Source: Octopus vulgaris
Lineage: Eukaryota
Reading direction: 5' to 3'
DNA length: 64,000 nucleotides
Assembly: GCA_951406725.2 (NCBI GenBank)
Contig: OX597836.1
Coordinates: 37,820,001 to 37,884,000 of the forward strand
Every line of letters starts with the position of its first letter. Within the stretch, counting starts at the first letter, position 1. Made by a program: the position numbers and the translations under genes. A model generated the notes under the pieces. That model worked only from the letters and a program-made list of their open reading frames with translations, was not told the DNA's origin and made no database searches. Shown here one piece after another: positions 10,179-43,595 of the stretch.

Positions 10179-10940
10179 TTTTCTACTCTAGGCACAAGGC
10201 CTGAAATTCTTGGGGGGTGGCTAGTCGATTAGCTCTACCCCAGTATGCAACTGATACTTAATTCATCGACCCCGAAAGGATGAAAGCCATGGTCGACCTC
10301 GGCGAAATTTAAACTCAGAACGTAACGACAGACACATATACCTATTTCTTTATTACTCACAAGGGGCTAAACACAAAGAGGACAAACAAGGACAGACAAA
10401 GGGATTAAGCCGATTACTTCGACCCCAGTGCGTAACTGGTACTTATTTAATCGACCCCGAAAAAATGAAAGGCAAAGTCGACCTCGGCGGAATTTGAACT
10501 CAGAACGTAGCGGCAGACGAAATACCTATTTCTTTGCTACCCACAAGGGGCTAAACACAGAGAGGACAAACAAGAACAGACAAACGGATTAAGTCGATTA
10601 CTTCGACCCCAGTGCGTAACTGGTACTTATTTTATCGATCTCGAAAGGATGAAAGGCAAAGTCGACCTCGGCGGAATTTGAACTCAGAACGTAGCGGCAG
10701 ACGAAATACTTATTTCTTTATTACCCACAAGGGGCTAAACACAGAGCGGACAAACAAGGACAGACATAGGTATTAAGTCGATTATATCGACCCCAGTGCG
10801 TAACTGGTACTTAATTTATCGACCCCGAAAGGATGAAAGGCAAAGTCGACCTCGGCGGAATTTGAACTCACAACGTAACGCAGACGAAATACCGCTAAGT
10901 ATTTCGCCCGGCGTGCTAACGTTTCTGCCAGCTCGCCGCC
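10179..10940 (-). mobile_element. tRNA-derived SINE, family B, with three tandem 184-bp internal modules
   Basis: Single head GGCGGCGAGCTGGCAGAAACGTTAGC at 10940; B box GAGTTCAAATTCC; core GCCTTTCATCCTTTCGGGGTCGATAAATTAAGTACCAG. Module junctions at ~10341, 10525 and 10709. Confidence 0.9.
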
Positions 10941-11006
10941 TTAAACTGAATGCATATTAGTGTGTGTCCTACCGCTGAATCCGTAATCTACGCATTGACC
11001 TGATCT

Positions 11007-11177
11007 GGGTTAGGTTTAGGGTTAGGGTTCAGAGTAAGATTTAGGGTTAGGGTTTAAAGTAAGGTTTAGGGTTATGATTACGGTTAGTGTTTGGAGGTTA
11101 GGTTTAGAGTTTAGGATTATAGTCAGGATGAGGGATTGGGATTAGAGTTTTGTTTTAGAAGTAAGGGTAGGGTTAGG
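11007..11177 (+). repeat. Degenerate TTAGGG-like tract, probably inside a small transposon
   Basis: GGGTTAGGTTTAGGGTTAGGG... with many variant units; weak inverted repeats ttagtgtgtg / cacacgctaa on either side. Confidence 0.7.
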
Positions 11178-11459
11178 AGATAAGTCACACGCTAAAGTGG
11201 TACCGAATATTCTTTGTGAGAAGCAGAGATGAAAGGGAAATACAGTGACTGAGAACGACTTCGCAGAAAATAGCTCAAAGTTGGAGGAGCACTTAAATAT
11301 TACACGGATTTGCTGATTAGTGGATATGAATAAGTCGTTAGAATCAATATTAACTTAACCGTAGTTAAACTAACAGCCAGTAACAATATCACGTTACTAA
11401 CTCGTTATGATATTATGTTTAACATTCTATATCACACCACGAGGGGGTATAACACACTA

Positions 11460-11664
11460 CGTGGGGTTTACTGAAACGTTCCTGACTTTGGTTAAATTAA
11501 TTCAGTTAATTATGGTTTTATTAAACATATTCCCCTCTCAGATTCATGCACTTATTGCAGCGGTCCTTCAGTTTTTCTAATCCATACAAAAGAACTCGCA
11601 AAGTTGGGCCTCTACCCAACTTTCGCGATACCCTTAAAGCCAGGAATTTTTCAGTACCCCCTCC
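11460..11664 (-). mobile_element. Mariner-derived MITE
   Basis: Imperfect ~27-bp TIRs (GGGG..TACTGAAA.GTTCCTG.CTT), TA on both sides, and an internal minus-strand remnant KLKDRCNKCMNLRGEYV (mariner C-terminus). A relative lies at ~31860-31990. Confidence 0.75.
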
Positions 11665-12282
11665 TATAATATTATTCAGCTAACATACATTGTATGCTGT
11701 AGGTCAGCAAATTATATTACATTGTACATTTAACCCTTTATGGCATGTGTCTAGTATTATGATATTATATTATTACAGAAAGTTAAAGAAAATAACTCGA
11801 GTTGGTTAATGGCAGAAGTTTAGATAATACATTTAGCATGCACTGAATGACCTCAGCAACATATTCTAAATGAACAGACATTTGTCTTTTAATTGGAGAA
11901 AGAAAACAAAAATTTGGATGCAATTGTTAGCAAATTTCGAAAAAGAAGGGAAATCTTTTTTATTACATATTTAAGATGTGTTTGCATAGGCGCTAGCATG
12001 ACTGTATGGTTAAGAAGCTCGTTTTGCAACTGCATGGTTTCGGGTTCGGTCCCGCTAATTTTGAATTAACAGTAGCTCTAATAATGTAAACATTACCGAT
12101 GTCAATACATAATGTATGTGTTTTGTTTGTGCGGTTCCTCGCTGCTGGACTCATTCGAGAAATAGTCCCTTTAAGACGTCGAGTGTTAAAGACTATTTTC
12201 CCCGAGACGAATCCCGCAGCCAATAAGCACATAAACAAAAACACGTATGTTAAGTTCGAGAAGTTGGTAATAATAATAAATT

Positions 12283-12757
12283 CCCTGATGCCATACCAAG
12301 CAGTGGCTTTCATTGTTTCTGACCATAACTGATTGGAAGTGTTATCATGTACATGTTTTGCCTGGTGTAAAAATGGGCAACAGCAAATATTCTGCTCATA
12401 ACAACAGATTTGCTTGTCAGTTGTTTGACCATAAGCAGTTGACCATGTCCCTTAGTGGCTGACAATATATACACCTCTGATCATGAGAAAAATTGTTTTG
12501 TTCAACATTCTTAAGCAACACTTATTCAGGGACCTTTTGAGTGGGATGGGATACTCGACCGAAAGACAATTCTAACTGGTCCCATCTGCAAGGTCATGCG
12601 CTGTTTATCTTGATATGAGATCACCATGTTGTGCATATATGGTTGTGATACATGTGCCTGGTGTACCCCTATCAGACGGGTAGTCATGACGGGTATACTG
12701 GGCTTCGTATATTTGTACCCCAGTGTCACTTTGATGGCATGCGCTGCTCTCTCACTC

Positions 12758-12835
<78 letters not shown>

Positions 12836-13272
12836 TGTCTTGTTTGGTATAAAAGACAGATTACAGCAAATATTTTGCTCAATACAACAGATTTGTTTGT
12901 CAGTTGTTTGACTATAATCAGTTGAGCATGTCCCTTAGTGGCTGACGATATGTGCCTTTCTGATCACGAACAGAAGTATTGGGGGAACATCATAGCCATG
13001 TGTTGAAAGGAATTCTCTGGGATTTGGATAATTCACCTCTGGAAACATGGGCGTTTCGTTCAACATCCTTAAACAACCCTTACTCAAACTGAAGAAAATT
13101 CTTATTGGGCCCCACCTGCAAGGTCATGTGCCGTTTACTTTGATATGAGATCATGTGATGCATGTGCCTGGTGTACCCTTATCAGACGGGTAGTGATGAT
13201 GGGTATACTGGGCTTCGTTTATTTTACCCCAGTGCTCTCTCAATAATAATAATAATAATAATAATGATGATG

Positions 13273-13309
<37 letters not shown>

Positions 13310-13449
13310 TAATAATGATAATAATAATGATAATAATAATAATAGTAATAATAGTAATAATAATGATAACAATAATGATAATGATAATAATAATAATGAT
13401 AATGATGATAATAATAATAATAATGATGATAATAATAATAATAATGATG

Positions 13450-13516
<67 letters not shown>

Positions 13517-13533
13517 TAATAATAATACTAATA

Positions 13534-13576
<43 letters not shown>

Positions 13577-13716
13577 TAATAATAATAATAATGATAATGA
13601 TGATGGCAAGAACTGCTCTCTCACTCAATAATAATAATAATAATAATGATGATGATAATAATGATAATAATAGTAATAATAGTAATAATAGTAATAATAA
13701 TAATAATTAATAATAA
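12283..13716 (+). mobile_element. Chain of 5'-truncated retroposon 3' ends (family C), each followed by (AAT)n
   Basis: Homologous copies 12283-12757, 12836-13240 and 13601-13627 all end at ..ctctc(tcact)caataataat. Further pieces at ~14180-14330 and 49665-49780. Confidence 0.8.
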
Positions 13717-14064
13717 TTTAACAAGCACCATATGTAAGACAGGGTACGCTATTTATAACACTGAGTAAAACATTGAAAATTTTATCGCGAAAAAGTGATT
13801 GGCTGAAAGAAAGAAACGAAATTGTTCAAACTGAGTCAGACCTAAAGATTACGTTACAATATTTTCAGTAAATGTTGCTAGTATAACTAGGACGTTATAC
13901 ATGCCATAGAAAACATCATAAAGGATAGCAGGTTGTTGTGCCTTTTCTGAATTATTGCAACAAAGATAACCAGTGATTTACTTTATGTAACATATTTTTG
14001 TCTTTACTCTGTAAGTGTTATTTCCTGTTACCTTTTATCTAGATATCAATGGAAATAACTACTA

Positions 14065-14361
14065 TTCCCTTCAAACTTTGCTTTTCTCACCTGGACATCA
14101 ATATTATGAAACTGACATATTTTACGTTAAATTTCAGACAGATTCAGTGCTGAGTTACTAACGCAGAAATATCGTTATAATAAATATTCTGTTCAGTACC
14201 ACAGATGTGATTGTCAGTTACTTGACCTTAACCACTTGAACATATCCCTTAGTGACTGAAAATATGTGCATCTCTGCTCATGAGCAGAAGTAGTGAGGAA
14301 ACATTGAGAGGGATTCTTTGGGGGTTTGAATAAATATAACAAAAGCAAAGTTTGAAGGGAA
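14065..14361. mobile_element. 21-bp perfect inverted repeats enclosing a family C fragment
   Basis: TTCCCTTCAAACTTTGCTTTT (14065-14085) / AAAAGCAAAGTTTGAAGGGAA (14341-14361). Confidence 0.6.
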
Positions 14362-14410
14362 ATATCAGCCATTTTTTCATACATAGGTCACGTGTTAAGG
14401 TTATATCTAC

Positions 14411-14540
14411 AGATACTCTATAGAAATTATAGCCAGCACTGATTTTCGTTACGACGTTTCGTATCCGAGACCTCAGATCATATCGGATACGAAATGTCGT
14501 AATAAAAATTAATGTTGGTTATAATTTCTATAGAATATCT
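14411..14540. repeat. Palindrome with 58-bp arms and 14-nt spacer
   Basis: 14411-14468 versus 14483-14540; 8 mismatches, all transitions. Confidence 0.9.
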
Positions 14541-15189
14541 AGGACACAGTGTTGACTTATAAAAGGTATTATATACTCTATAGTATATTATGGATGCATA
14601 ACGAAATACCGGGTATCTACAAATTATTAGGGGTAAGCAAATAGGAAATAACAGCTACTAGGGTAAGAAAATAGGAGGGATACGCAAATAGGAAATAACA
14701 ATTACTACCCAAAGACAAACGTCGTGTTACACGCTGTGTTATGTGTCTACAAACAATTCAGGCAGACATTTAATACACTAATCTTTACCTTGTTTCTATC
14801 ATTGGACTGTAGTCGCGATTGGGTACCCTCTTGAAGAGATTTAGTCGAACAAATGAACCCCAGTACTTATAATTTTATAGTCTGGTACTTATTCTATAGG
14901 TTTCTTTTGCCAAACCGCTCTGTTGCGGAGTTGTAAACAAAGCAACACCGGTTATCAAACGGTGAGGGACAAACACAATGACACACTCATATTTATGTGT
15001 GTGTGCGTGTGTGTGTGTATGTACAGTTTCCGTCTACCAAATTCACTCGCAAGGCATTAGTCGACCCAGGGATATAGTAGAAGACATCTGTCCGAGGTGC
15101 CGTGCTGTGGGACTGAACCTAAAACCCTGTGGTTGCAAAACGAGCTTCTTAACCACACATCCATGTCTTCACGTATGCTGATATTTTGC

Positions 15190-15757
15190 TTCCAAATTTT
15201 GACACAAGACCAGTAATTTCGGGGGAGGTGCTAAGTCGATTACTTCGACTCCAGTGATCGACTGGTACTTATTTTATTGACCTCAAAAGAATGGAAGGTA
15301 AAGTCGACCTAGGCGGAATTTGAACATAGAACGTAAACGCAGGCAAAAAAACCTATTTCTTTACTACCCACAAGGGGCTAAGCACAGAGAGGACAAACAA
15401 GGACAGACAAACGGATTAAGTCGATTACATCGATCCCAGTGCGTAACTGGTACTTAATTAATCGACCCCGAAAGGATGAAAGGCAAAGTCGACCTCGGCG
15501 GAATTTGAACTCAGAACGTAGCGGCAGGTGAAATACCTATTTCTTTACTACCCACAAGGGGCTAAACACAGAGAGAACAAACAAGGATAGACAAACGGTC
15601 GATTATGTGGACCCCAGTGCGTAACTGGAACTTAATTTATCGACCCCGAAAGTATGAAAGGCAAAGTCGACCTCGGTGGAATTTGAACTCAGAACGTAAA
15701 GACAGACGAAATACCGCTAAGCATTTTGCCTGGTCTGCTATCGATTCTGCTAGTTGC
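15190..15757 (-). mobile_element. SINE family B with two 184-bp internal modules
   Basis: Junctions cctatttc at 15352 and 15536. The outer head and terminal body are more diverged than the inner modules. Confidence 0.88.
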
Positions 15758-16201
15758 TTATATTAGCTATCAATAATGGATAAAGCAATGAAATTGGTGA
15801 AAATTGTTTGATAAACAGTAGCTGTTAAAATAAGATTACAACTAAATAACAATGAATTGTGATATATTTTACGTTCGTGCCAGTCTTGACCTAAAATATA
15901 AGTTTTTTTTTTTGTTATGTTCTTGTTTAGTCATTTTCCCTGTCCCAAGCAGCCCCATTCTTTGGTCATTGTTTCACATAAAACTAGGGCAAGTATTTCT
16001 ATTCTCTATGGAACATTGTTAAGTACCACTTGAAGAAATTATAGGCACTGATTCTGTTTATAGCAAACAGACTCTGTTATGTCTTTGTCTAATCAAGAGT
16101 GTCCTATTGAAAAGAACTGAAACTAAATTTTCAGTACGAGAAGCACTATTTCCAAACGACGAACCGTGTTTGTTGTTAAATAGTTGTCTTACTTCGTGAA
16201 A

Positions 16202-16292
<91 letters not shown>

Positions 16293-16306
16293 CATACATA
16301 CATACA

Positions 16307-16399
<93 letters not shown>

Positions 16400-16611
16400 T
16401 TATTGAAATGGATAAATGAATTATCTTGTTACGGATTATTCAAAATTTAACCGATACCTGGGTAGCAAAAATCACAACAGAAAAAACACGGTTGAGGTTA
16501 CGACCATGGGGTGTCGCAACCGTACCTTAGCGCGGATAATTGAAGTTTTATATATTTAGTGAAGGGAAGAAATGGAGCTGAACGAAGATTCTACAAAATT
16601 CCTTTTTATTA

Positions 16612-16695
16612 TTTTCTACACATGTTTCAAAGGCTGCAAATTTCCAAATTCGGATTGAATAAAGGGACCATTTTGCAGCTTTCTCTTCAGGAAAA
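16612..16695 (-). ncRNA. Type I hammerhead ribozyme (left arm of palindrome)
   Basis: Mirror copy of 16893-16975. Confidence 0.8.
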
Positions 16696-16892
16696 ACCAG
16701 AAATATAAATCTCCAAACAAATGCGCAGCAAGCTATTCGAACAAAACGCTCCCTAGGAGCCCATGGTAAAGCACAAAACTGTCTCTCAATTGAGGCACAT
16801 TGAGAGACAGTTTTGTGCTTTACCATGGGCTCCTAGGGAGCGTTTTGTTCGAATAGCTTGCTGCGCATTTGTTTGGAGATTTATATTCTGGT

Positions 16893-16975
16893 TTTTCCTG
16901 AAGAGAAAGCTGCAAAATGGTCCCTTATTCAATCCGAATTTGGAAATTTGCAGCCTTTGAAACATGTGTAGAAAA
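16893..16975 (+). ncRNA. Type I hammerhead ribozyme (right arm of palindrome)
   Basis: TTTTC CTGAAGA GAAAGCTGCAAA-loop-TTTGCAGCCTTT GAAA CATGTG TA GAAAA. Intact core, 5-bp stem I, 12-bp stem II with one mismatch, GUA site (cut after 16970), AATAAA at 16977-16982. Confidence 0.8.
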
Positions 16976-17023
16976 TAATAAAAAGGAATTTTGTAGAATC
17001 TTCGTTCAGCTCCATTTCTTCCT

Positions 17024-17086
<63 letters not shown>

Positions 17087-17145
17087 GCACATATACATAC
17101 ATACATGTATATATACATATATACATATTTTTATGTATTTGTATG

Positions 17146-17181
<36 letters not shown>

Positions 17182-17267
17182 TAGACAGAGACAGACAGAC
17201 AGAAGGGAAGACAGAGACAGAGAAAGAGAAAGAGAAAGGGATGCAGATAAACATGATTAGGCTTGCC

Positions 17268-17308
<41 letters not shown>

Positions 17309-17759
17309 CATAAACATTAAACACCTGTTTCCATACTGAGCATTTGTAGCTCTCACCTTTTAACTATATAAATATATTCTTTTACTTGTTACAGTCATTT
17401 GACTGTGGCCATGCTGGAGTACCGACTTGAAGGGTTTTTAGTCGAACAAAACGATCCCAAGACTCATTTTTTAAGCCTGGTATTTATTCCATCGGTATCT
17501 TTGGCTGAATCGCTCTCTTACGGGGACGTAAACATTAGCGCTTCCATAGATTTGTAGTAATCATCAAATTTTAAAATGTATTTAACTGATATTTGAGTTC
17601 TTAAGAGCTGTAAAAAATTGACCAACTTCTTTTTTGTACAGTCATATTAAGTTTTTCAAATGAAGAAGAACTTAATATGACTGCACAATGATTAAAAAAG
17701 TGAATATTCTATGTGTATTCTCTGTTTTCTTTAAACTATCATATATATATATATATATA

Positions 17760-18861
17760 AGACAAAATAGAGTGAAAAAACTACAGAAGACTTGTGTTAT
17801 GCGGTTAAATAATATATTTAAATCGCTATGTTAGAAAAATGTTAGAAAATTTTGTGTATAGTAACATTGTTTTGGGAGAATGACCGGTTTCGTATTTTCT
17901 TTTCAAATTACTCAATTTCTTTACTGGTATTGTGTCATCTCTTCGCTATGATGTGAAGTATAAAAGTTCCAGAGAGGGGAAGGTAATCAGGGATTTTTTC
18001 GGTATTAGGAAGATATCAAAAATGTTGGGAATGACTAAGTTTTATTAATTTAACAGGATTTGGTTTAGAAAGATTAGAATGTTAGAAGTGGTTAAATTTT
18101 GATTTATATTTTTTTTCAATGAGGTAAGTTTCCTTATTTTAAAATGCTAGAAATGGTTAAGTTTTGGCTTATATTTTTCAATGAAGTAGGTTTCCTTTTT
18201 TAATCTTATTGTTGGTGTTCCAATTGCACATTGATAAAATGGAAAGATTACAAATTGTGGTAGCAGTTGCTTTGCGCATCTCCCAAAGTATTTACTAAAG
18301 GGTATCATTCTGTATTCTGGGACTGCTATCTGCTGTCGGTGTAGAGTGCATCTGCGTCTGAGCGATAATCCCGTGGACCCTATGTAGCCTTGGTGGCAGC
18401 CCGAGCATCTTTTAACATAAATCAAGTTTTCTGAAGCACAAGTGAAGTCAGATTTGATTTTGAATTTTTGTCCCTCTTTGAAAAGGAATTCTGATTCTTC
18501 TAAAAGATTTGGGCATGTTGCGCAATTTGGGCGACTACATTTTTTCACTTTGCATACGTAATTTTAGAAAATGATTTTGCCTTTGGGAGGAGGATCTTTT
18601 TTAGTGATTTCGGTTGATTGTGGCCTTTAATGATCTCATGTGTGTGTGAAATTTCCTTTAATTTGGGGTCCTTATATAGCATTCATAAACTTGGGGTGAT
18701 GATGGTGAAGGCTTCTTTGTTTCTGGAGTTGTATGTGGATATGTACGGCAGCATTTTCGGTGTTGCTATGTTGAACTTTTCTTAAGGTTTTTATGTCGAT
18801 TTGTATTGCACCTCTGATTCCATCCTCTATGAGTTGAACTGGGTAGTGTCTGTCAATCAGG

Positions 18862-18864
<3 letters not shown>
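17760..18864 (-). mobile_element. 5'-truncated Penelope-like retroelement between (TA)n tracts
   Basis: RT C-terminal remnant LIDRHYPVQLIEDGI..LPYISTYN, then the GIY-YIG ORF, a short tandem duplication of the ORF end (~18080-18145), and a decayed hammerhead half GTA..TAC GAAA CCGG TC at ~17878-17920. Confidence 0.9.
18147..18548 (-). pseudogene. GIY-YIG endonuclease domain of a Penelope-like element
   Basis: CSRPNCATC Cys-rich linker, NLIY..CSGC..GYIGST (GIY-YIG), R..LH, E.YFI..YKPKLN. The upstream RT frame is disrupted. Confidence 0.92.
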
Positions 18865-18933
<69 letters not shown>

Positions 18934-21355
18934 CACCAGATATAAATTGGAATTATTTTATTTTAATTTATATAAGATTGCAGAAACTATGCATAGTCTA
19001 GGAAAAATAGGGTAAATGTTTTTATTTTACATTCTCTTTCAGAATTGCATCTATTAGTGGCTTGGAGTTTTAACTGCTCTTTCTAGTCACTCAGATATCC
19101 TATTATTGGTTATCTCTTATGTGTTTGAATGTACACTGTATTCTTCTATATATATATGGTGTTAGGCCATGACGTAAAATATTTTAATTTATCTATATAA
19201 CAGCAGCGGTGTACGAACATATTTTGTTGGAACCAATTCAAATAATTACTTTTTTGTTTCTGTTCTTATGTTATAATACTAATGTGCATTTTTATATACC
19301 TATGTATCGATTAATTTTTCTGTAGTTTATTAACGTTATCAAAGGAATATATTATCAAACAAATGTTAATATATCTTGTGAAACATCAATAATTTCAATA
19401 TTTCTCTGACGTTTTATTGGCGTATTAATAATTCTCTTCTTTAAAAGATATTATTACTCTTTATTCAACAACGCACCGATGTACACTAACAGATTTAATT
19501 GCTTCAGTTTTCAGTAACCAAAGGTATCCATTGACAAGTGGATAGTTCTGTTGATTTGGGGAGAGGAAATATTTTTCTATAATGCCGGTTTCAAATTTTT
19601 AGCACATGGCCATCAAGTCACTACATCAACATCCTCCCCGAAGTGTTTTGTCTGGCACAGTAATGATTCCTCCCGCTCGCCGCTCCTATTATATTGATCT
19701 CAGTAGTTGATTTAGTACTTATTTTGTCAATGACGGATGAATGACAACGAAGATCTTGTTATTTGAACTCAAAATGTAAACGACCGTAAATTAAATATTG
19801 CAAGGCATTTTGCCAACACTCCACAGGTTCTGTCAATTGAACGGTTTTTCTGTTAATAAGTACAAGAATATGTAAGTACATACATTATTTTGCATGTGTA
19901 TATGCGTGCATATGAGTACCCGTGAAAGATACGTGGCCTTCAGCACACAATGTTTGACACCCTATCATAAAATTGTGAAATGCCTTGCACAGTCTTTTCA
20001 GTTGAATTGATTACCAGCCAAGCAATTACAGAACGCTCTTGGATCGTTGCATGGACACAATGGACTACTTTGTACTTAATTGTGCTTTCTTTTGTTGTAC
20101 CCTTGGTCGTACAATTTAACAAAATTGTTTATTATACGGTTCCCCGCTCCTTCAATTGATAAACATTATCTCTCTATTGCACCGAGCTGACGATACTTAG
20201 CGACAGAGCCAGGGAGTGAAATACAAATCGGTCGCATAAAAAATAAAATCTCTCTAACAAGATACTTTCGACTTATTTATTATTACGGTACTTTCTGTCA
20301 TGCATTTCGAATCTCCAGCCGAAAATTTACTGCCAAAAGGAAAGGCAAGTGGACCAAGATGACTTTGGAGGCCCCGAAGTTCCATAAGAAATGCAAGAGG
20401 ATTTGATTTGGAAAGATAGTGACGATGTTTGAATGTTTACACTACATGTTTACACTATAAACTGCGTCGATTTGTATGCTGAAAAATACGGCAGTCCGAT
20501 AATCTTTCAAACCTTCTACCCATAATGTTGGTAACTGAAAAGAAGGCAAAATTTTTATAATATCTCACATATCGAGAATAATTTTTTCGTATAGATATAA
20601 TGTATAATACTTGAAATGCTATTAAAAAATGTCACTCAGCAATCATACAAGTTCTGCTTTCCGGTTATCAAATTACTAAATCCTTTAAAAGAATATCCTG
20701 TTAAATAAACACGGAAACATAGACCTTTAATTTCTTTTAAATAAGTAATTCATAGCTTGCTTTATAAACTTCTAATTACATGAATGCCAGATTATCGAAG
20801 ACTGAGTTTTGGGGAATAATTATTGCTACGGTTATGGAGGTAACATCTATGCAATTACCTCCTAGTTTCCCTCTGTTTTGTTGGGGTTGAGGTTTGATCT
20901 CTCTACATATAAAACAAGAGAATAGTGCCGACGCTTTCTTCAAAGTTTTCTTTTCCTGTTAGAATATTAAAAGGAAAACATCTAAGGATACTTACGAAAA
21001 TCTGTCTAAAATTTCCAAAATTGTCTACTATGATTTTAGTAATTATTAAAACCATTCCTCTGTAAATGAATTTATATACGAGATAGGAATTTGTGGGAAA
21101 TGATGTAAAATAGAATACCTAACTTTACGTTTATATCACTGTTCTGGATATTCTTGTTCGTTTTTCCATAAGATCATTCATACATTCGTGAACTCAGACG
21201 ATTTGACCGGGAATTCTTGACAAGTCCAACACAAGCATGAAGCGCTCTGTTACACATTAAATAGACGTGGACGGAATTGCTAATGTGGTGGAGACTCTGA
21301 ACGTCCGAAGCTTATCCTTCTGCTTAGTTTATCTGATTTTAAATAGTTAAGATGC

Positions 21356-21408
21356 GTCCCCAAAGTCCATCCCCTCCTCACCGTGGTGGGGACGCTAGCA
21401 ACGGATAG
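21356..21408 (+). ncRNA. Candidate minimal HDV-like ribozyme
   Basis: P1 GTCCCCA/TGGGGAC (7 bp), P2 ATCC/GGAT, P3 CC/GG, L3 TCCTCACCGT, G after P1', J4/2 CAAC. G1 is the first base after the TSD. Confidence 0.65.
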
Positions 21409-21730
21409 TGTCAGAGCTATGCCGTCGGGAACTTCGGTTCCTGGTAGGGCCACCCAAGGCGGATTGGTCTGACACCGAGTGGTATTAGGGCCACAACCCG
21501 GCAGACGGGGCTCTGCTGAAAATCCTCGGAGTGTCTGTTTCGGTAACCGGCGGCTCCTCGGTCGTTCTGTCTCTGCGTCTGCGGACAATCTGCGGCAAAC
21601 AGGATGTCTCCACATGCGAGATTGATGGGGACCGCTTGTGAAATCCACATATTCCCACGAAACTTCTTCCATGAGTAGAAGAAGCCGACTCAACCCGCCC
21701 AGGGTGAATGTCGCCACAAGTACAAGTAAG
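21356..21730 (+). mobile_element. Non-autonomous bipartite RTE-clade retroposon (5' UTR joined to 3' end)
   Basis: 8-bp TSD TAAGATGC (21348-21355, 21731-21738); RTE-type 5' UTR motifs cgtggtgg..gagctatgccgt..agggccacccaag; short-repeat tail CAAGTACAAGTAAG; GC-rich against its flanks. Confidence 0.8.
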
Positions 21731-30695: not shown

Positions 30696-30760
<65 letters not shown>

Positions 30761-31799: not shown

Positions 31800-33586
31800 T
31801 TTATGATGTGCGCCGGACTACCTATGCGACATAGGTAGGAGTACAGGAGGAGGATCATTTAATTATGATTTTACTCAACATATTCGTATTCCCCTCTCTG
31901 ATTCACATAGTTATTGCAACGGCCCTTCAGTTTTCTAAACCCTGTAAAAGAATTCGGAAGGTCTGGCCTCCAACCAAGCCTTTCGCGACACATATATAAT
32001 ATACTTCGTATATGAGATTCGTATATAAAAAGAAATACGAGATGACATTCAACAGTATTCGTGCAGTTGTTGAGGAGGTGGTGGCGGTTGTGGTGCTGGT
32101 GGTGGCGGTTGTGGTGGTGGTGGTGGTGGTGGTGGTGGTTTAGCGATATGTCAGCCTTGATCGAGCACATTTTATTCCAAAGGGATTCTACTTATGACCA
32201 GCCTGTCCTTTTATACATCAAAGCATTATGGTATCTAATATGTCGTTCATTTTTTTTTAGATAAAATAGCATGAGGAAGATTTAGCTGCTATTTATAACA
32301 GGTAAAGCAAACAAGCAGAAGTTCCTTCTTGTGTGATATGGGCGCAGGGGATAGAAATAGCAGGAATCCAGTATGAGAAATGCGAAACGCGTTACAAATA
32401 TTTTGGATGAGGGTGAAGTTGGTTTGGACGACAGGGCAGCATTCATTGCTTTTGCCGAGAGTAGTGAGATCAATGCAGGTAACGTTTCTCCTGGACAACT
32501 GCAAATCGACGACTGCAGAAAAATTAACAAATGCAACGATAAGCAGGCAAAACAAAATGTTGTTATTAGTATGGGATCTGTATGCGGGCACATCATGGGT
32601 CACGATTAGAAAATACGGGGCAAGTTGGAATTGGCTGGTGCAGGGTGCACAAGAGAAGCTAGCTCTGAGAAACATAGGCCGCTGTAGTAACCGTAGAAAG
32701 AGAAGACAGAGAAAAATACAAGATTTTTATGGTTCAAAGGCTGGAGTGTGTTGGTGAGTGACTTGATATAATGGTTTTTCACTGATGTGGTTTGGGATGT
32801 CTGTATGGTGTAGCAGCAGCATGTTCCCCGTGATGTGAACAATACTCCATTTTAAGTCTCACCTGTACTTTGTAGAGTTAGTAGTTGGTGGGAATGGATG
32901 ATCTTTTTATTGCGAGCGGAAAACTTTTATGAAATTTTTTCCGCGGACCATACTCGTTGCGTCTCCTCACTCCGACAATTATGATCTCTTCTCCTCAGCG
33001 ATTATTAATTTTATTCATCTTCCACTTAGAGACTTCTGACTCATTCGTCTCCCCCGCTTCTCGTCGGTCATGGCCTTTTAATTTCCTATAATAAACCTCG
33101 TACAGGATGGTATAAGGAAGACGTTCTCCTTCAGTTGATTTGTCTGTGGAACGTAATCGTGACGAAACCTATCCTTTCTCAAGCTAAATTTATGACGGAA
33201 TTTGAATTCTACACCATTAGGAACTTACTAAAACATTCCTCTTTATACAGTACTTCCGCTAATTTCAGAGGTAAACTGTACTTATTATTGAGTCATTGAC
33301 AGCTGGGCAGCGTCGACTCAGCACAGTTCTAAATGTGACTCCAGTCAAAAGTTTAATAAAAGAAATCACGTATATATTCAAGTTGCGACATTTTTTCCAT
33401 CAAAGTTATTATATTTTACGCGAATTCCTTACAATGTGTTTGGAATTGTAAAGATCCGAAATTTCTCATCAATATGGTTTCTAAATCTTTATAGTCTTAG
33501 TCATCTTGGTGAAGTGATGTTGGTGCATGATGTTGCTTCTCTATAGAGGTTACTGGTCTAATGTGATTAATGTAAATATTGATTCC

Positions 33587-33985
33587 AAATTTGGCACAAT
33601 GCCAGCAATTTTGGGGCAGGGGAAGAGTAGATTACATCAACCCTCAATGCTTAACTGGTACTTATATTATCGACCCCCTAAAGGGATGAAAGGCATAGTT
33701 GACTTCGGCGGAATTTCAACTCAGAACATAAAGACGGAAAGACGGACGAAATACCTATTTCTTTACTACCCACAAGGTGCCAAACACAGAGGGGACAAAC
33801 AAGGACAGACAAATGGAATAAGTCGATTACATCGACCCGTGCGTAACTGGTACTTAATTCATCGACCCCGAAAGGATGAAAAGCAAAGTCGACCTCGGCG
33901 GAATTTGAACTCAGAACATAACGGCAGACGAAATACGGCTACGCATTTCGCCCGGCGTGCTAACGAATTCTGCCAGCTCGCCGCC
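33587..33985 (-). mobile_element. SINE family B with one internal module
   Basis: Head at 33985, junction at ~33754. AATGTAAATAT occurs on both sides (33569-33579, 33992-34002), a possible TSD. Confidence 0.85.
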
Positions 33986-35949
33986 TTGAACAATGTAAAT
34001 ATAACTACCAAAAATTAGAATTTATTACCGTTAGATTTATGTCTCATCAGTTGGGTGTTTATTTTCCTTTGTAATTAGGTTTGGTTGTCTGTGTGTTTAT
34101 TTTACTACTATTCTGTTCTTCTGATGATAGCTTCCATTATTTGAGACATGGCTGGAAGTAGCGAGCTAGCACGGAAAAATGCCTAGCGCTATTTTTCCCG
34201 GGGTTTTTTTTTGGGGGGGGGGGGTACATTCTGAATTCAAACCACGCGGAGGTCAGCTTTGGCTTTCATCCCTCCGATTGATATAATAAAGTACCAGCCA
34301 AGTTCGTGGGTGGGGAGGATAAAATAAAGTGCTAGTTAAGCTTTGGGTTTGATAACATCGACTAATCGTCCATCAAAACTGCTGGTTTTGAGTCTAAAGT
34401 AGAAACCGTTAAGAGTAGTATGTTGGCAGAATCATAAGATCGTCGGACAAACTGCTTTGAAGCATTTACATTTTGGTTTCAAATCTTGCTGAGGTCAACT
34501 TTACCTTTAAGTCCTCAGGGACCGATAAAATAAAGTACCAGTCAAGTTCTGAAATCCATGTAATCCCTTCAATTTTTTTATATATCTCTTCAAAACTTTT
34601 GGTCTAAATCAGAAATAATTATTAAACATCCGTTAGAATCGTTAGAGCGTCGGATGAAATGCTTTGAAACATTTGTTCCAGCTCTTACACTTTGGTTTCA
34701 AATCTTGCTGAGGTCAACTTTACCTTTCAGCCCTCTGGGACCGATTAAATAAAGAAGACGGTGAGCACTGCAAAATCGTTAGAGCATCGGGGGAAATGCT
34801 TTATGATGCTTCTTCCGATTCTTTACTTTCGGATTTCATCGAGGTCAACTTTGCCTTTCGTCCCTCCCAGAGCAATAAAATAAATAATCTGTCAAATAAT
34901 AAGGTCGATGATGTCGACTTACTCACCGCTTCAAAGTGGTTGGCTTTGGGCCTAGTTTAGAAGCCAATATTATACAGCTGACTAATGACATATATAACTG
35001 TTAGATAATCAAATCTCTGCATTCATGCCTACATCAAATCATATTGGATGCAAGAATTCGATGGCAGCCTTCGACTTCTGTGGAATTTTTTAGATCCAAT
35101 ACTGTTTATATACTCTATTATTTATAGCTTTATCTGCTTTGCATTCCATCGTTAAAATCTATATATTTCACGTCTCTCAAAGTTTCTAGATTCTTATGGC
35201 GTAAACCGTATACACATACATATATAAAGCATATACATATATAGAGAGAGAGGGGGCGAGGGGGAAGAGGGGAGAGAGAGGAGGGAGAGTAGGAAGGAGG
35301 GAGAGTTGGAAGCAGGGAGAGTAAGAAGGAGGGGAGGGATGGGGAGAGAGAGGCAATTATGCGGATAAACAAATTAGATAATTAAATATATTAAACATTT
35401 TAAATATAATAATTTGGATATTAAATGCAAAATATGTATATATGTATACACGCAAAACGAGAGAAAACAAAAGGTGGAGACTTTCAGATGATGAATTTTT
35501 AAGAATAGATATATAGATATTTATATTAATAGGTCCAACTTATACGTGTATTTCATGTGTCTAATCTGTTTATCAGCATAATTGCCTCTGTATCAGCTCA
35601 ACTTGATCCCTCTTACAGCCATTCTTTACCTTGCGGAACCGATCTCCTGTAAGATCATCGAAGACTAAGTTTGAATCTTTTGAGCACTGCTGTCTTCTAT
35701 ACTGAGACTATTTGGATCTAATCTGTAGATAGTGACACTGAACAAACCGGGTGTTTTCACACCTTTTTACCATAACAGAGATATTTTCTCCAGTGTAATT
35801 GCAGTGAGTTTGCCTTTTAGCTGTTCAAATATGTCGCAAACATACTTAACTAACCTAAATTTTGCATGTATGTGTGTGTGTATTGGTTTAGCTGATCGAA
35901 ACTGCGGAGTCACTGGAATACTATTATTGCTAAGGAATAAATTTTTAGT

Positions 35950-36193
35950 CTACCCTCGACCGGCAGCGTGCTGTGTCCTTCGGCAAGACACCTTATTTCA
36001 GGTTGCTCCAGTTCACTCAGCTGGCAAAAATGAGTGGTACTTGTAATTCAGAGGACCGGCCTTGTCACAGTGTGTGTCACGTTGAATCTCCCTGATAACT
36101 ACGTGTGTCTGTGGAGTGCTCAGCAACTTACACCTTAATTTCACATTGATCGGATCAACTGGAACCCACGTCGTCGTGACCGACGGAGTGCCA
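35950..36193 (+). mobile_element. Third SINE family, head truncated
   Basis: gtgtccttcggcaagacacctt..ttgctccagttcactcagctg..aaatgagt resembles a widespread SINE central domain; followed by (GATA)n. Confidence 0.6.
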
Positions 36194-36493
36194 GATATAG
36201 ATAGATAGATACATAGATAGATAGATAGATCATAACTGACCGTAACGGTTTTCTACCTCCAGTTTGGAGAGAGGTTATATGCCCGCGGCCACTGGAGTCT
36301 GACCAGTCGTCTATAAAGCTAAGCACTATTTGGATGCGAAACTATTTTTCACTATGACCGGACATATATTTAACTTCATGTGTATGTATGTATCCATGTA
36401 TATATGTATGTATGTATCTATTACACAAAGTGCGATAACAAAGCCAAGGCTGTGAGTTTTCAGGACACTTATAAGGCAAAAGGTATAGATGTA

Positions 36494-36541
36494 GTCTTAC
36501 AGCTGTTTCTGGGATATTATGGGTATCCCTTCATCAGAGAC
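36494..36541 (-). ncRNA. Minimal type I hammerhead ribozyme with intact core
   Basis: The minus strand reads GTCT CTGATGA A GGGATA-CCCATAA-TATCCC A GAAA CAGCTG TA AGAC. There is an A.A mismatch at the base of stem II and a palindromic stem III. Confidence 0.8.
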
Positions 36542-36635
36542 GATATGAGATGGTTAAATAGAGGTATATATATGAGTTCGAAATAAGGAATTAATATATA
36601 CATAGATATATAACGAATTTTATATATATATATAT

Positions 36636-36691
<56 letters not shown>

Positions 36692-36693
<2 letters not shown>

Positions 36694-37160
36694 GAACGTA
36701 AACAAACAAATGAAGGTTGCTTTACAAGCGTTGAGATGTCTTAGAAAGTTAAAGAAGTGATTTTTAATTCACAAACGTAGGATAATACTAATAACATAGC
36801 CTGAACAGGATAAGCTATCCCTATTTTGCAGAAAAAAAGCGTTGGCGGCCGGCTATGAGTCGCGAACTCATACCTCTGTGATTATGCGTCGCGGTGCTCT
36901 GAACCAATTAAGCTAAACTGCCCACACTACAAATTCTTCTGCAAATTTAGAAATCTCGCTTTATGAGAAGCTATCATACGTTAAATTCAAATTACAATGA
37001 ACGTAAACAAAAAAACGAAGTTTGCTTTAGAAGCGTTGAGAAGTCTTAGAAAGGTAAAGAAGTGATTTTAAATTCTCAAACGCAGGATAATGCTAATAAT
37101 ATAGCCTGAAGAGGAGAAGCTACCCCTATTTTGTAGAAAAAAGTGTTGGCGGCCGGCTAC
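36692..37160. repeat. 305-bp unit, ~1.5 diverged tandem copies
   Basis: atgaacgtaaacaaa...gttggcggccggcta at 36692 and 36997. Confidence 0.9.
36843..36922 (-). pseudogene. tRNA-like pseudogene with CAT at the anticodon position
   Basis: Minus strand: GGCAGTT TA GCTT AATTGGTTCA GAGC A CCGCGA CGCATAA TCACAG AGGT ATGAG TTCGCGA CTCAT AGCCGGCC GCCA, then T7. D and T arms are good; anticodon and acceptor stems are mismatched. Confidence 0.65.
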
Positions 37161-38149
37161 TAAGGCCGTTGACCTAAGTTTCTGTAAGAAGCTTAACTTT
37201 AGGTCGCATGCAACCGAATCAAGCTGTTTTGAATAATAAATAATATATGAGTGCGTGCTCCTGTGTGTACATATGTGCCTGTGAATATATACGTACGTGT
37301 GCGTATGTATTGTGCGTATGCTTTGACTCTCGTTTATGAGTTATGGCGTGTTATTTCTGTAAATGTGTTGAATCTCTTCTGTCAATCTAACAATTCCGTC
37401 AGTGTTCCGATAAATGAAAACATAAGTTCCTTTGTTATAAAAGTTAATCGCTTTTGCAGATGATTCAATTTCGTCTTAGCAACTATTATCTTCTAATCTG
37501 AATAAATTAACTTCAATTTGAAGGAAATAATCACCTTATAAATATTCTTTTATATAGTATTTATAATTTTTTTAATTCTTTACTATTTATACTTTTTATA
37601 ATTTTTCTTCAAAGCATTCATTAATGTATGCAGTAGTAAGGTCTACAAATTAGTATGCAAATTATTGTGAGATACAGCTAAATCTCGGTCATTCGAACAA
37701 TCTATTAACCGAATTTCAGATTATCCAAACAAAATCTTAATGTCCTTTGAATGGTTTAATTAACCATATTGAGTATAACCTTACCGTAGAACCAATTCTG
37801 GTACGATCAATTCGTCTTTTGAATGACTGAAGATAATTTTTAAAAAGCGTAACAGGAAAGTGTTGCTATACTGGTGCAACGATCGCATCTTCTGTTTATA
37901 CTTACCAGTCAACTGGTCAGCCAGTCGATCCGCTAGCTTTGTCTCGGTCACTTTAAAATATGTTATAATGAATTCAACATACACAAATAACTAACAGAGT
38001 GAATGATTGAAAGAATTCCAAATCATTGGTGCTTTCATTCACTCTACGAGTTTATTCCGATTGCGTGTCCGATACAAGTAGTCGAGTTTGTCGCTATTAC
38101 AATAGCTGTACGGACAAAGTAAACACATTGACAATACAGGAAGAATACT

Positions 38150-38460
38150 AGATTTTACAATATTAGAAAAACAACGGTGTCCGACTCCAAGAATGCTAGG
38201 TCCGAAAACTGGAAAATTTATCAACCAAAATGAAAATTTACATGCATTAAAAAGAAATTCTATGGAACCAGTAAAAGATGAGCAGCTCGTATTTTTTGTG
38301 ACTTTTACAGCAACATAAAATGGAGTTTCTTGCCTTTGGTCTGCAACTACAAGAAAAAGCGATCAGTTTTCATGAACAAATCCGGCTAGAGAAACAACAC
38401 ATGTCAAATCATAGTGTATTATTTGATGGATTACAGTGTTTCAAAAATCTTTGTTGACCT
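38150..38460 (+). pseudogene. Highly decayed pogo/Tigger-like transposase HTH region
   Basis: Fragments KTTVSD, KRNSMEPVKDEQL and GLQLQEKAISFHEQI resemble CENP-B-type HTH domains; Tigger-like end TACAGCTAAATCTCG at ~37673. Confidence 0.5.
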
Positions 38461-39439
38461 ACCCTCCAAGTCAGTGAGATAGTCTCATTCAAAAGTTGCC
38501 ACAATGCAAAGAAGCATATTATGAAAAGCGGTCTATAACGATAGTCTGCTCGATAAACTTCAATGCCACAGTCGCTCAACCAGGAATAGTCGCAACTATA
38601 AAGAAATATAGCCGTAACAAGTTGCATGTCAACGTCATTGAAGACAAAACAAAGAATTACTGCAAATAAGATATTCGCAGTCAAGAGTACGTTGGTGGGG
38701 ATCTCAAATTCTCGAGAACGTTTCAAGCCGTCAACAGTCAGACTGTTGGTTTAAGGACTTGTGTGCTGGTAGATATGACAGTAAAGAGGATAGTGACCAA
38801 ATCAAAGAGTAACGATTGAAATCATCAAGAACTGCAATCATCTGGAATTAGAAGACTACGGAGAGGGTGAGATCGAAGTTTAAGTTTGAAAGGGACATTG
38901 CAACAAAAACACTTAGACGATCAGATTATCAACATAATCACAGAAGACCAGCGAGTAAGGACGGACATTTTGGATGTTAAGTATTGTCAGAAATTGATAC
39001 CACTTCCAGTTTTATATTACGGAAATTTTCGATAGTTTGAGACTTTTAAGGAAATTATATGAAGTACAATATAAATTCGATAGCGTTAAGCTTATACCTT
39101 TTCGTCAACGTCTTTGATGAACTTTGTGAATTTCCTGCACAAGCATACAAATATAATTTGTAATTACGTCGTACTTCCTTGAATTTCAGTGTTTTTCTTA
39201 TTTGAAAGACGTAATGGATTTTATTTGTAAAATGCAATGAATTTTTAAGCAATGCTCAGTGTTTCGTCTCATTGTATTGATTCAGTTACATTAAAACTCT
39301 GTGAAAATGCTTTTTAATGTAATTCTGCTCAGTATGACTTTCTTTGTTTTACAGCGAATCAGTTATCCGAACAACAAAATACTCCCCATGCGTCTAACTG
39401 TTTACGTGATATTCATAACTGTTATCCTTGTATACCAAA

Positions 39440-39511
39440 GATTATATATCACATAATTTGTTATATGATAACATGATTATATATCACATAAGTTGTTATA
39501 TGATAACATGA
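39440..39511. repeat. 35-bp tandem duplication
   Basis: GATTATATATCACATAA(T/G)TTGTTATATGATAACAT twice. Confidence 0.9.
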
Positions 39512-40296
39512 AATATTGCATTCTCGGTGATATAAATTATATTTGTAACTACAAATATTTTGGAGTTATTTGAAACACTTTATATTAAAAAGAAAGAGTT
39601 GTGTCCATAGCTTTCGAAGGCTCTTCGAGACCGGCCACAAAAACATGGTTAATGTTCCATTTCCATAGCTGTAGGGAAAATTATGGGCAAGGATGGAATG
39701 TCAGGGACTTAACAATCTAATAAGAAAAGCCTGGATGATGTGGCTTGTGCAGAGCCTATCAAAATGTCAAAATATAGTTGACAAATATATATGTTGAGTT
39801 CTTGAGCAAGACAAAATATAGTGAATTGGAACTGTATGACTGGGGGTGGCAGAAGACCGACCAGTTTCAAGGAAGAGAGGCCACTATAGTCCTGGTAGAA
39901 AAAAGTTAGAGGAAAAAGTTCAAGTCTTTGAACTGATGGTTGGAGTATATGGGCCCGCGACCTCATGTCAATTAATCGGATTGCCTGCTGTGCAGGTTAT
40001 ACAGAGTCAGTGTGTGTCTCTGTTGGAGTAATATTGAAGAGTTTTAGCCGTAGAGATTAACCCAGTACTCATTTATTCATTTTTTAAAGTTTGGTACTTA
40101 TTCTGTAGGTCAGTTTACCATACCGCTAAGCTACGTAAGCGTAGAGCAACATTAGTTTTTAAGTGATATGGCGTCAGGGGCAAACACACGCATAAGAATA
40201 TATGACTTAGAATAAGAACAGTAATAAACGAGTAAAGAACGAATATATAGTGTGTGTTTATTTGGCCAAAAAATATGACTGTCCCGAAATACAACA

Positions 40297-40371
<75 letters not shown>

Positions 40372-40598
40372 CACACACACACAGAGGAAGGCGGTGAGCT
40401 GGCAGAAACGTTAGCACGCCAGGCGAAATGCTTAACGGTATTTCGTCTGCCGTTACGTTCTGAGTTCAAATTCCGCCGAGGTCGACTTTGCCTTTCATCC
40501 TTTCGGGGTCGATTAAATAACTACCAGTTACGCACTGGGATCGATATAATTGACTTAATCCGTTTGGCTGTCCTTGTTTATCCTCTCTGTGTTTAGCC

Positions 40599-43348
40599 TG
40601 TAGTGATCCGACAACGGCGCGCGCTCGCGCACCGCCCATTTGTATTTCGCGCGTGTTGGTGCCTTTACCAAGGCACAGAAAGGAAGGCCCTCTCGCGCAT
40701 GCGCGAACCACCGGTAGCACGACCCTATTGCCTACGTAGCAGTTAGCGAGGCAAGGGGGTCGTAAGACGTTGACTACCAGCGTCCAGTCCTCGGTGACTT
40801 GGGACCCAGCGATTGACGGCGACGGTCACGCATATATTCTCTCCATTCGAACTGATTCTAGCAGTCCTTTACCAAAAGGGCTTTAACCAAAATTGTTGCA
40901 GACCAACATCGTCTCCATTGTTCGACGCCATCTTGGACCCTTTCTGTTTTGGGCTGAAGATTGTAAATATTACAATCTATGAATTTTCAGCCTTGCGCGC
41001 CCAGAATCAAGGACATCAGATAACACACTTATTGTTATTGTTTACCAAGAAAGAGAATAAAGTAGTTATATGTATATTCTACGTCTGCGTCTTGTTGTTT
41101 CTGACTTGTAGAATTCTGGATTATTTAAGTAACGGCTAGTGAGTGATTGCTTTGTGCACCCCAAAAGTGCACGAGGATATTCACACCTCACACGTTAAGT
41201 TCGTTACAAGTGGTGACCCCGACGTGATTCTGGTCTAAAACCAGAGATCACTTATCAACAAAAAAAAATCCAGTTTTTCTGCGAAGTCGGAACACGATTT
41301 AACTCTACGCATTCATCTTGCGACGATTTGTTTTCCGGCCACCACAAAGTTGTAGAAGGAGCCTCTTTCTTATTCTACAGCATGATGACGAACGCCATCA
41401 ATTCATCGATGCTTTTTCTCTGCCTTCGTCATCACCATCGTCGTCTGTCTACTTCACGTCGTCGCTATCTTCGTCGCCATCATCACTAAGAACGATGTTG
41501 TCCCAAGTCCACTACAGTCGCCTTCCACCACCAACATCGCCTTTCAACACCGTCGACCTCCACCAAGATGTACATAGCAACTCGCGGAAGTTTGGTCCAC
41601 TTGCCGTTTGTGCATATGCACACCAAGGATTCACAGCACCTTCTACGAGATTTCTTCTGTTCCAGTTAACCTGTCACAGCATCGAAGCCACAACCGTTAC
41701 ACGATATGTGTTCAACCGGCATCTGCATTTTGTGATTTCAACATTTCTGTTACAGAACGAACTGCTATTGTACATCAGGCTATTACAGACTGGTAAATTA
41801 ATTCTTGTCTGGAATGGCCCTTGAGAGACATTTTTTTCTATGCGCTGTTTTTATATTTTGCTCGCATTCACCTTGTATGTATTTCTGTCGCACACACGTA
41901 CACACACATAAATGCTCTCTCTCACATACATACGTCACACGTGCTTTTCTCGCTTGTTTTGTTCCATGCTAAATTTGCCTTTTATGGATACCCCTCATTT
42001 CTATAGACCCTAGCGGTCACGTATACATAGAGAGGGTTGTTTGTCCATTATAACGCGCCAGCATGTCATACTTTTGTTCCTGTGCGAACGAGGCATATAA
42101 TCGCTCAACCACTGGCATATTCTTGCTGTTTTTCGGTCTGGCAGCACTATTGCATTTCATGCGCCTATTGCTTCGCACGTGTACTTGCCTTGTTTTTGCA
42201 ACACGTTTTGCGTTAGCTTGATTTCTTTTCCCGACTCATGTCGGATGTTCAAATGCGCTGCGCCGATTTATAGGCGTAATTATTTTTCCCTGTTAGACCA
42301 CTGTTGGTCACGTAAATTAACAGAAAATTATCTGTGTCGCGCATCACACCAGCATGTTTGCACTTTTGCCTTTTGTGTTACTAGCGAGCTTCTGTCAATT
42401 CCATTTCCTCTCCTGCAGCAATTGATTTAACTGCTATTTGCAGGATCAACTACCTTTAGAGAAGTTGGATTTTAATTTCGCCTAGGTACATTAACTGTGA
42501 GTTTTGCTTTTCCCTCCGCTCCTTTCAGCGGAAGGGTTTATACTTTTGTGACGTATACACTTTCATGCATGCACTCTTGATTTTTGCTCATTGAGTATTT
42601 TTTTCTCTTTTTCCTTTAGTAAATTTCTTGTGTATGTTATAAATTTTGCCATTATATTATTGTGTGCTATTTGGTTATCTGGTGTCCACCTTGAGTTTTG
42701 CAGTCACTACAATAAGTTTCCTTTCGTGCGTACGCACTGGAGGGGAGCCTGTAGTGATCCGACAACGGCGCGCGCTCGCGCACCGCCCATTTGTATTTCG
42801 CGCGTGTTGGTGCCTTTACCAAGGCACAGAAAGGAAGGCCCTCTCGCGCATGCGCGAACCACCGGTAGCACGACCCTATTGCCTACGTAGCAGTTAGCGA
42901 GGCAAGGGGGTCGTAAGACGTTGACTACCAGCGTCCAGCAAGCCGGTGACTTGGGACCCAGCGATTGACGGCGACGGTCACGCATATATTCTCTCCATTC
43001 GAACTGATTTACCAAAAGGGCTTTAACCAAAATTGTTGCAGACCAACATCGTCTCCATTGTTCGACGCCATCTTGGACCCTTTCTGTTTTGGGCTGAAGA
43101 TTGTAAATATTACAATCTATGAATTTTCAGCCTTGCGCGCCCAGAATCAAGGACATCAGATAACACACTTATTGTTATTGTTTACCAAGAAAGAGAATAA
43201 AGTAGTTATATGTATATTTTACGTCTGCGTCTTGTTGTTTCTGACTTGTAGAATTCTGGATTATTTAAGTAACGGCTAGTGAGTGATTGCTTTGTGCACC
43301 CCAAAAGTGCACGAGGATATTCACACCTCACACGTTAAGTTCGTTACA
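40599..43348 (+). mobile_element. Complete non-autonomous LTR retrotransposon, Gypsy-like
   Basis: LTRs 40599-41208 (610 bp) and 42750-43348 (599 bp), TGTA...TACA; TSD AGCC; PBS at 41211; PPT GGAGGGGAG at 42739; 1.5-kb interior without gag/pol motifs. Confidence 0.95.
41211..41228 (+). promoter_or_regulatory. Primer-binding site complementary to the tRNA-Trp 3' end
   Basis: TGGTGACCCCGACGTGAT, 2 nt after the 5' LTR; matches the eukaryotic tRNA-Trp 3' 18-mer as recalled. Confidence 0.9.
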
Positions 43349-43537
43349 AGCCCCTTGTGGGTAGTAAAGAAATATGGATTTCGTCTGTCTTTACGTTCTG
43401 AGTTCACATTCCGCCGAGGTCGACTTTGCCTGTCATCTTTTTCGGGGTCGATAAATTAAGTACCAGTTACGTACTGGGGTCAATCTAATCGACTGGCCCC
43501 CTCCCCCAAAATTTCGGACCTTGTGCCTAGAGTAGAA

Positions 43538-43595
<58 letters not shown>

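Follow-up and report, generated by a model that had tools for sequence, protein, structure and literature searches.

How does a short interspersed element (SINE) come to carry, behind a single head, one to three further modules that join it at the same internal position? The question is raised by four arrays in a 64,000-nucleotide (nt) stretch of the Octopus vulgaris genome (contig OX597836.1, positions 37,820,001 to 37,884,000), here called the window. The original prediction, made from the letters of this stretch, described the arrays as head-[body-tail1]n-body-tail2 and proposed that a 184-bp module without an A box, a parasite of a SINE, enters older copies at a fixed site. We find that the module is a young SINE (head-body-tail1) minus its head, and that there is no separate parasite. 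This young SINE has very probably inserted into older copies of its own family, and such nested insertion, at the head/body boundary of older relatives, was probably steered by read-through RNA.

Sequence comparison within the window located all four arrays at the predicted coordinates and with the predicted anatomy, n being 3 at locus 1, 2 at locus 2, and 1 at loci 3 and 4. Read in the direction of the SINE, each begins with a head of 49 nt, continues with one to three units of body (116 nt) and tail1 (66 nt, ending AAAGAAATA), and closes with a body and tail2; Tandem Repeats Finder reported a period of 184 with 3.6 copies and a period of 178 with 2.7 copies. The body start adjoins the tail1 end in 7 of 7 cases, and the self-complementary sequence GAAATA-GG-TATTTC, as foreseen, is exact at 3 of these 7 junctions. 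Inner modules are indeed closer to each other (mean body identity 92.5%) than to the terminal bodies (84.2%), which are 79.0% identical among themselves and represent two tail types. A single head is found at each of the four arrays; the claims of one head and one invariable junction hold at these four loci, but two-headed forms, free tail1 ends (one of them in the window), and a second site within the head occur beyond them.

A young SINE and its older hosts

The genome (2.8 Gb in 227 contigs) was sampled in 120 evenly spaced 10-kb stretches, 1.2 Mb in total. Headed elements in this sample were 36 without tail1, 37 head-body-tail1 monomers, and 14, 4, and 2 in which one, two, and three copies of tail1, respectively, are followed by more SINE. 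The number of modules, whose distribution was proposed earlier as a check, stays at 3 or less in the sample; longer arrays, a 6-mer (L174) and a 13-mer (L011), came from genome searches. As the monomer is the commonest form with tail1, head-body-tail1 counts as a SINE of its own. It is 231 bp long, non-coding, dispersed, and present in high copy: an exact 21-base pattern of the tail end has at least 73,331 matches genome-wide, and the 77 tail1 ends in the sample extrapolate to about 180,000. Like other tRNA-derived SINEs, it has an A box (TGGCAGAAACGTTAG), a B box (GTTCAAATTCC), target duplications, and a 3′ tail related to a long interspersed element (LINE); we take the two sequences to be boxes on the strength of the general box consensus. 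No intact tRNA was called by ARAGORN, and an Rfam scan of locus 1 at E-values up to 10 returned two chance hits only, with no ribozyme and no small nuclear RNA (snRNA) match. The A-box-less parasite thus finds no place, the commonest tail1 form being a complete, headed monomer with its own target duplications.

We infer that a poly(A)-less LINE, which we presume to be Tx1-like, supplies the enzymes of the SINE. Tail1 is alike at 39 of 47 bases to the 3′ end of a full-length, poly(A)-less LINE (L307, 1500-7540), which has two frames, one of them of 1,146 amino acids with endonuclease, reverse transcriptase, and zf-RVT domains; the endonuclease is of the apurinic type, and the zinc motif is C-terminal. 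This LINE is young and inserted in (TATC)n, with 3′ ends 98-100% alike in 40 of 40 scored. Tail1 is alike at 48 of 55 bases to a second LINE-like, poly(A)-less family with varied targets; longer flanks of 10 of its copies contained no long frame reaching the tail, and gave weak matches only, to the C-terminus of the LINE protein. An R4/Dong element as the partner was ruled out by the LINE domains. A set of poly(A)-less copies (L285-L304) ends in 55-60 tail1-like bases at varied targets, and some members have an open reading frame resembling the first frame about 1 kb upstream.

The bodies into which modules are inserted are older and mutually unrelated. By their tail2, 33, 5, and 6 of 47 terminal bodies belong to three subfamilies (3 were unclassified), and their divergence from the respective consensus is on a par with that of lone copies (8.5, 14.0, and 14.7% vs. 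8.1, 14.3, and 15.1%). Across 41 loci, mostly from junction searches, the host body differs from its consensus by 9.9% and the first module at the same locus by 4.2%, the host being older in 35 of 41 (p = 9e-7); in the subset from random stretches plus the window the values are 9.6 and 5.7%, with the host older in 8 of 12 (p = 0.02). Host age and first-module age were not correlated. Terminal bodies are star-like, only 5 of 44 being nearer to another terminal body than to the consensus, and the host body of locus 3 had no other match above 82% over its length among the 40 scored of 5,008 candidates. The younger unit and the preferred site of the original prediction therefore stand, but the strictly fixed site and the lack of an A box do not.

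This age structure bears on a dimeric master, in which head-body-tail1-body-tail2 would have spread as a unit and n would have varied by unequal crossover. Such a master would give the fixed junction for free, and a similar one-head architecture in blood clam is ascribed to unequal recombination in the available part of PMC11481361. Among the 42 arrays with at least two modules, 16 have rare variants in common, and one (L019) shows an alternating two-unit pattern. Rare variants are shared by 34% of pairs within a locus vs. 2.3% between loci, so that local duplication is real, chiefly in long arrays; 26 of the 42, including loci 1 and 2, share none. However, the terminal bodies fall into three subfamilies and are twice the age of the first module, and insertions with internal duplications exist. 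Since hosts are about twice as old as modules and mutually unrelated, the dimeric master is refuted as the origin, and we consider this explanation extremely improbable; the clustering by locus at equal age that it implies was not found, local duplication being confined to the 16 arrays. Unequal crossover explains the growth of some arrays, not their origin. Nor are these Alu-like dimers, whose halves are of equal age and spread as a unit. Four or more homogenized units, as in SINE-derived satellites, occur in a minority only (the 13-mer and the 6-mer), and not at the four window loci.

Landing sites and mosaic heads

Copies ending in tail1 are flanked by target duplications of 9-19 bp whose first base directly follows GAAATA. 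They were found at 30 of 51 monomers, compared to 4.4% in shuffled pairs, and, with a stricter anchor (bases 6 onward), in 67 of 150 copies, compared to 1.1%; in this 150-copy set the downstream bases were free of the search pattern, except for one base at position 14. The 77 random tail1 ends are followed by a SINE body start in 32 cases, by head position 15 in 1, and otherwise by GG (12), TAT (13), AGA (8), or other bases (11). Only 72 of the 6,295 GGTA sites in the sample are SINE body starts. The SINE thus prefers one site, the head/body boundary, inside another repeat, here its own relatives. Junctions vary: position 15 of the SINE head serves as a second site, and GGTA, AGAA, and TATA sites are used elsewhere.

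These sites also bear on the predicted circle, in which a headless 184-nt module would close through GAAATA/TATTTC pairing, undergo rolling-circle reverse transcription, and live as a SINE parasite. The self-complementary junction suits such a circle, as do the arrays of 6 and 13 near-identical units. Against it, the GAAATA end also joins non-complementary sites (AGAAACG, TATAT, and GGTA), most arrays mix subfamilies, complete headed monomers are the commonest form, locus 1 matches no ribozyme family in Rfam, and the predicted fold pairs TATTTC within a head hairpin (whole-element z = -0.25). A joint that goes back 182 bases, seen in contigs from sequencing runs at loci 1 and 3, is expected from genomic tandems, and family copies swamp the signal. 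With 26 of 42 arrays also lacking a shared variant, a circle is not needed, and we regard it as very improbable.

Direct proof of nested insertion comes from two-headed loci with internal duplications. At L318 an old head and a 17-bp duplication are followed by a new head with two modules, after which the 17 bp appear once more and the old body resumes, and similar two-headed insertions were found at L230, L062, L382, and L384. The 5′ duplication is kept at 4 of 72 nested loci (one of them without a second head, and one more doubtful) and at 2 of 5 in a fresh set, which makes 6 nested copies overall, 5 of them with two heads. The idea that two heads persist only over diverged hosts was ruled out by L382 and L384.

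Heads over old hosts are otherwise intermediate. They diverge by 12-13%, compared to 8-9% for young heads and 19-21% for old ones (n = 18, counting once a window locus that was fetched twice and including two two-headed loci). Head position 19 is of host type in 10 of the 18, compared to 21 of the 88 young monomers (p = 0.01). A variant confined to young copies marks the 3′ end of the head in 6 of 18, and the body begins with young sequence, the host allele being present in 2 of 18; this last count ruled out that the opening 15 bases of the first body always come from the host. Because heads over old hosts are intermediate and mosaic, we conclude that two heads were fused at variable points. 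Fusion, whether during insertion or by later deletion, restores the target site either way. For R2 with upstream 28S sequence, invasion by the complementary DNA during insertion has been proposed (PMC3774820).

Arrays could also arise in one event, by a reverse transcriptase that jumps between SINE RNAs or copies the multimer RNA of a nested source. A single target duplication flanks the whole of three tail1-ended multimers (L002, L009, and L105) as well as the two-module insert of L318, and headless copies starting inside tail1 exist. The old, unrelated terminal hosts would be left unexplained, and old-type tails tend to occupy the final position of an array (7 of 20 last modules, and none among the commonest variants listed for 85 first modules). 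As the general origin this is distinctly unlikely; as a side route it is compatible with nested insertion.

Several side observations concern junctions. At L243 and L262, tail1 copies are inserted at a GGTACTT that belongs to another SINE body, read on its antisense strand. Short junction repeats of the tail end, with GAAATA or AATAAAGAAATA present twice, occur at L070, L125, and L319-L322, and resemble false starts of reverse transcription. At L073 and L075 there is a tandem composite of SINE head, partial body, and 130 foreign bases that rejoins at the head/body site.

Choice of the landing site

If the RNA took part in choosing the site, its bases past the end of tail1 might be left in the target. 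The first five duplication bases were identical in 47 of 67 pairs. Where the two copies differed, GGTAT, TATAT, or AGAAA was better matched by the tail-side copy in 18 pairs and by the far-side copy in 1, with 1 tie; without five rows that had at least three differences, the score was 13 tail-side vs. 1 far-side among 62 (p = 0.002), and an earlier subset gave 12 to 1. Mutation after an insertion chosen by an enzyme would be symmetric, so the tail-side bias points to read-through RNA. A copy that sits at the body site, at head position 15, or in (TA)n has exactly GGTAT, AGAAA, or TATAT, respectively, as its flank.

Tail subfamilies also differ in their sites. T-type tails were followed by GG in 46 cases, AGA in 3, TAT in 17, and other bases in 24, and C-type tails by GG in 7, AGA in 16, TAT in 24, and other bases in 11 (GG vs. 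AGA, p = 4e-7 in an earlier table). Junctions at the SINE body site are T-type in 27 of 32, and those at head position 15 in 7 of 100 listed, as counted by eye. RNA polymerase III terminates at a run of T, and head-body-tail1-body contains no run of four; the polymerase would therefore read into the flank. Taken together, the genomic sequences suggest that RNA read past its own end is the likely guide to the landing site, and we lean slightly toward a target choice inherited in cis, each source copy passing on the sequence before which it sits.

The mechanism we propose would run as follows. SINE RNA without a terminator would run into the flank, and the first flank bases would pair with the nicked target, prime reverse transcription, and overwrite the first target bases. 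A source that sits in another SINE would for that reason produce RNA carrying GGTATTTCG, followed by a stretch of over 100 bases homologous to all members of the family. Homology would then bring about the fusion of the two heads, during insertion or soon after, so that the site is restored and the next copy can land in front. One early insertion into the head of a relative could in this way have given rise to a lineage that targets itself, restores its site, and accounts for tens of thousands of junctions. The part in insertion that the original prediction allowed to homology is upheld.

Alternatively, a LINE whose endonuclease recognizes the SINE head could set the site, with tail subfamilies riding different LINEs. 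Several LINE-like tails do exist, the target classes differ slightly in age, and Tx1 LINEs, many of which are sequence-specific, bring SINEU to Mariner-N4, as described in part of PMC4494074. An endonuclease by itself, however, predicts no bias toward the tail side, where 13:1 was observed. Four tail-dependent pattern searches, from which 12 of 21, 9 of 9, 20 of 127, and 20 of 38 matches were read (61 loci), revealed no LINE at either of the SINE sites, the loci proving to be SINE copies or truncated tails; a differently tailed LINE would be missed by such searches. We consider this alternative unlikely.

Several points weigh against guidance by read-through RNA. Two of the kept rows (L020 and L214) are doubtful, and the five dropped rows would give 18:1. 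Mismatches amount to 5.5% in the first five duplication bases and 4.8% in the rest (the latter figure capped and probably inflated), and since the rate is barely raised, the 13:1 bias is one of direction only. Copies at AGA sites are slightly older than those at GG sites (88.9 vs. 91.4% identity, p = 0.035), a gap that is likewise compatible with a switch of LINE partner in the course of time; different tails could be carried by different LINEs. The partner candidates disagree, the full-length LINE targeting (TATC)n and the closer-tailed family varied sites. The expected gradient toward younger 5′ modules is weak: among 15 multi-module loci that did not come from the similarity-selected set, 11 have a last module older than the first and 3 a younger one (p = 0.06). 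Tail1-ended arrays may stem from multimer RNA copied as one unit, and the read-through RNA of the SINE is itself deduced from genomic sequence.

Known systems and the window loci

The closest known system is that of SINEU-1/2/3 with Tx1-Mar in crocodilians, which is alike in its Tx1-type partner (presumed in our case), its preference for a repeat, and its sequential tandem insertion (PMC4494074, in the sections available). There, however, copies land in a Mariner DNA transposon, carry snRNA-derived heads, and are separated by a duplication when in tandem, whereas our SINE targets its own family, has a tRNA-like head without an snRNA match in Rfam, and mostly shows fused heads. In R2 (R2Ol) and R1/SART1, read-through target sequence at the 3′ end of the RNA anneals to the nicked DNA and raises precision, from 12 to 96% with 100 bases in R2Ol (excerpts of PMC6530143 and PMC7265360), and upstream homology gives uniform 5′ junctions in R2/R1 (part of PMC3774820). 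Those elements are autonomous with one target set by an endonuclease, in contrast to a non-autonomous SINE with several targets that track its subfamilies.

Blood clam TSD-(SINE)n-TSD arrays (TSD, target-site duplication) likewise have a first copy with a full head, head-truncated repeats, and a last copy with a full tail; they are ascribed to unequal recombination, and relative to the accessible text of PMC11481361, host dating and target-site analysis are made only here. Squamate SINE-derived satellites similarly consist of tandem partial-SINE units, homogenized in long arrays, but are seeded by duplication within one SINE (PMC10702118, partial text) rather than by insertion, and our arrays mostly have 1-3 units. 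A literature search, which left most subscription journals outside its coverage, found no account of self-insertion by this element or of SINE targeting inherited in cis. The consensus sequences may already be in the repeat library of PMC13282606, judging from part of that source.

If the proposed mechanism is true, no protein needs to change for a non-autonomous element to acquire a target specificity, retain it, or move to another, and there is a testable route by which poly(A)-less LINE systems become site-specific. It would also turn dispersed SINEs into tandem arrays and so provide a seed for satellite arrays, and the SINE would be a natural RNA-programmed retrotransposon, suggesting how RNA might be used to program insertion sites. 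In repeat libraries of this genome, nested chimeras will be found as separate families.

Locus 1 (10179-10940, minus strand) has a tRNA-like head at 10892..10940 with the A-box-like TGGCAGAAACGTTAG, judged by the same consensus. It continues with a first body and tail1 (10711..10891, tail variant GGTAATA), a second module (10527..10710, GGTAGCA), and a third (10343..10526, AGTAATA), between which no rare variant is shared, and ends with the older host body and tail2 (10179..10342), terminating in CCTAGAGTAGAAA. A degenerate telomere-like (GGGTTA)n adjoins it at 11007-11159. Locus 2 (15190-15757, minus strand) has an old, host-type head, 19% from the young consensus (15715..15757), two body-tail1 modules that are 10% apart without a rare variant in common (15354..15714), and an old host body with tail2 of the CCAAAATTTG type (15190..15353).

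Locus 3 (33587-33985, minus strand) begins with a mosaic head (33937..33985) combining a host-type T at position 19 with a young-type 3′ end, GCGTAGCC. Body and tail1 follow at 33756..33936, and the old host body with tail2, again of the CCAAAATTTG type, at 33587..33755; an 11-bp target duplication of the host SINE lies at 33569..33579 and 33992-34002. Locus 4 (40390-43538, plus strand) consists of head, body, and the first part of tail1 (40390..40598) and, after an interruption, the rest of tail1, the older host body, and tail2 (43349..43538). The interruption within tail1 (40599..43348, plus strand) is an element of the long terminal repeat type, foreign to the SINE: 2.75 kb long, with TG..CA ends, repeats of about 610 bp that are 97% alike, and a 4-bp duplication (AGCC). 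No long frame was found between its two 610-bp repeats.

A free-standing head-body-tail1 monomer, followed by TATAT, lies at 52040..52260 (plus strand). It is located between two 270-bp copies, 90% alike and containing an older SINE head and body (51926-52531), which are possibly an unusually long target duplication. A 5′-truncated copy of tail1 (58424..58489, plus strand) is antisense within an older SINE. The window also contains, at 44991-46962, a tandem duplication of recent origin with units of about 844 bp that are 99.7% alike, and an inverted repeat of about 415 bp, 92% alike (58925-60178).

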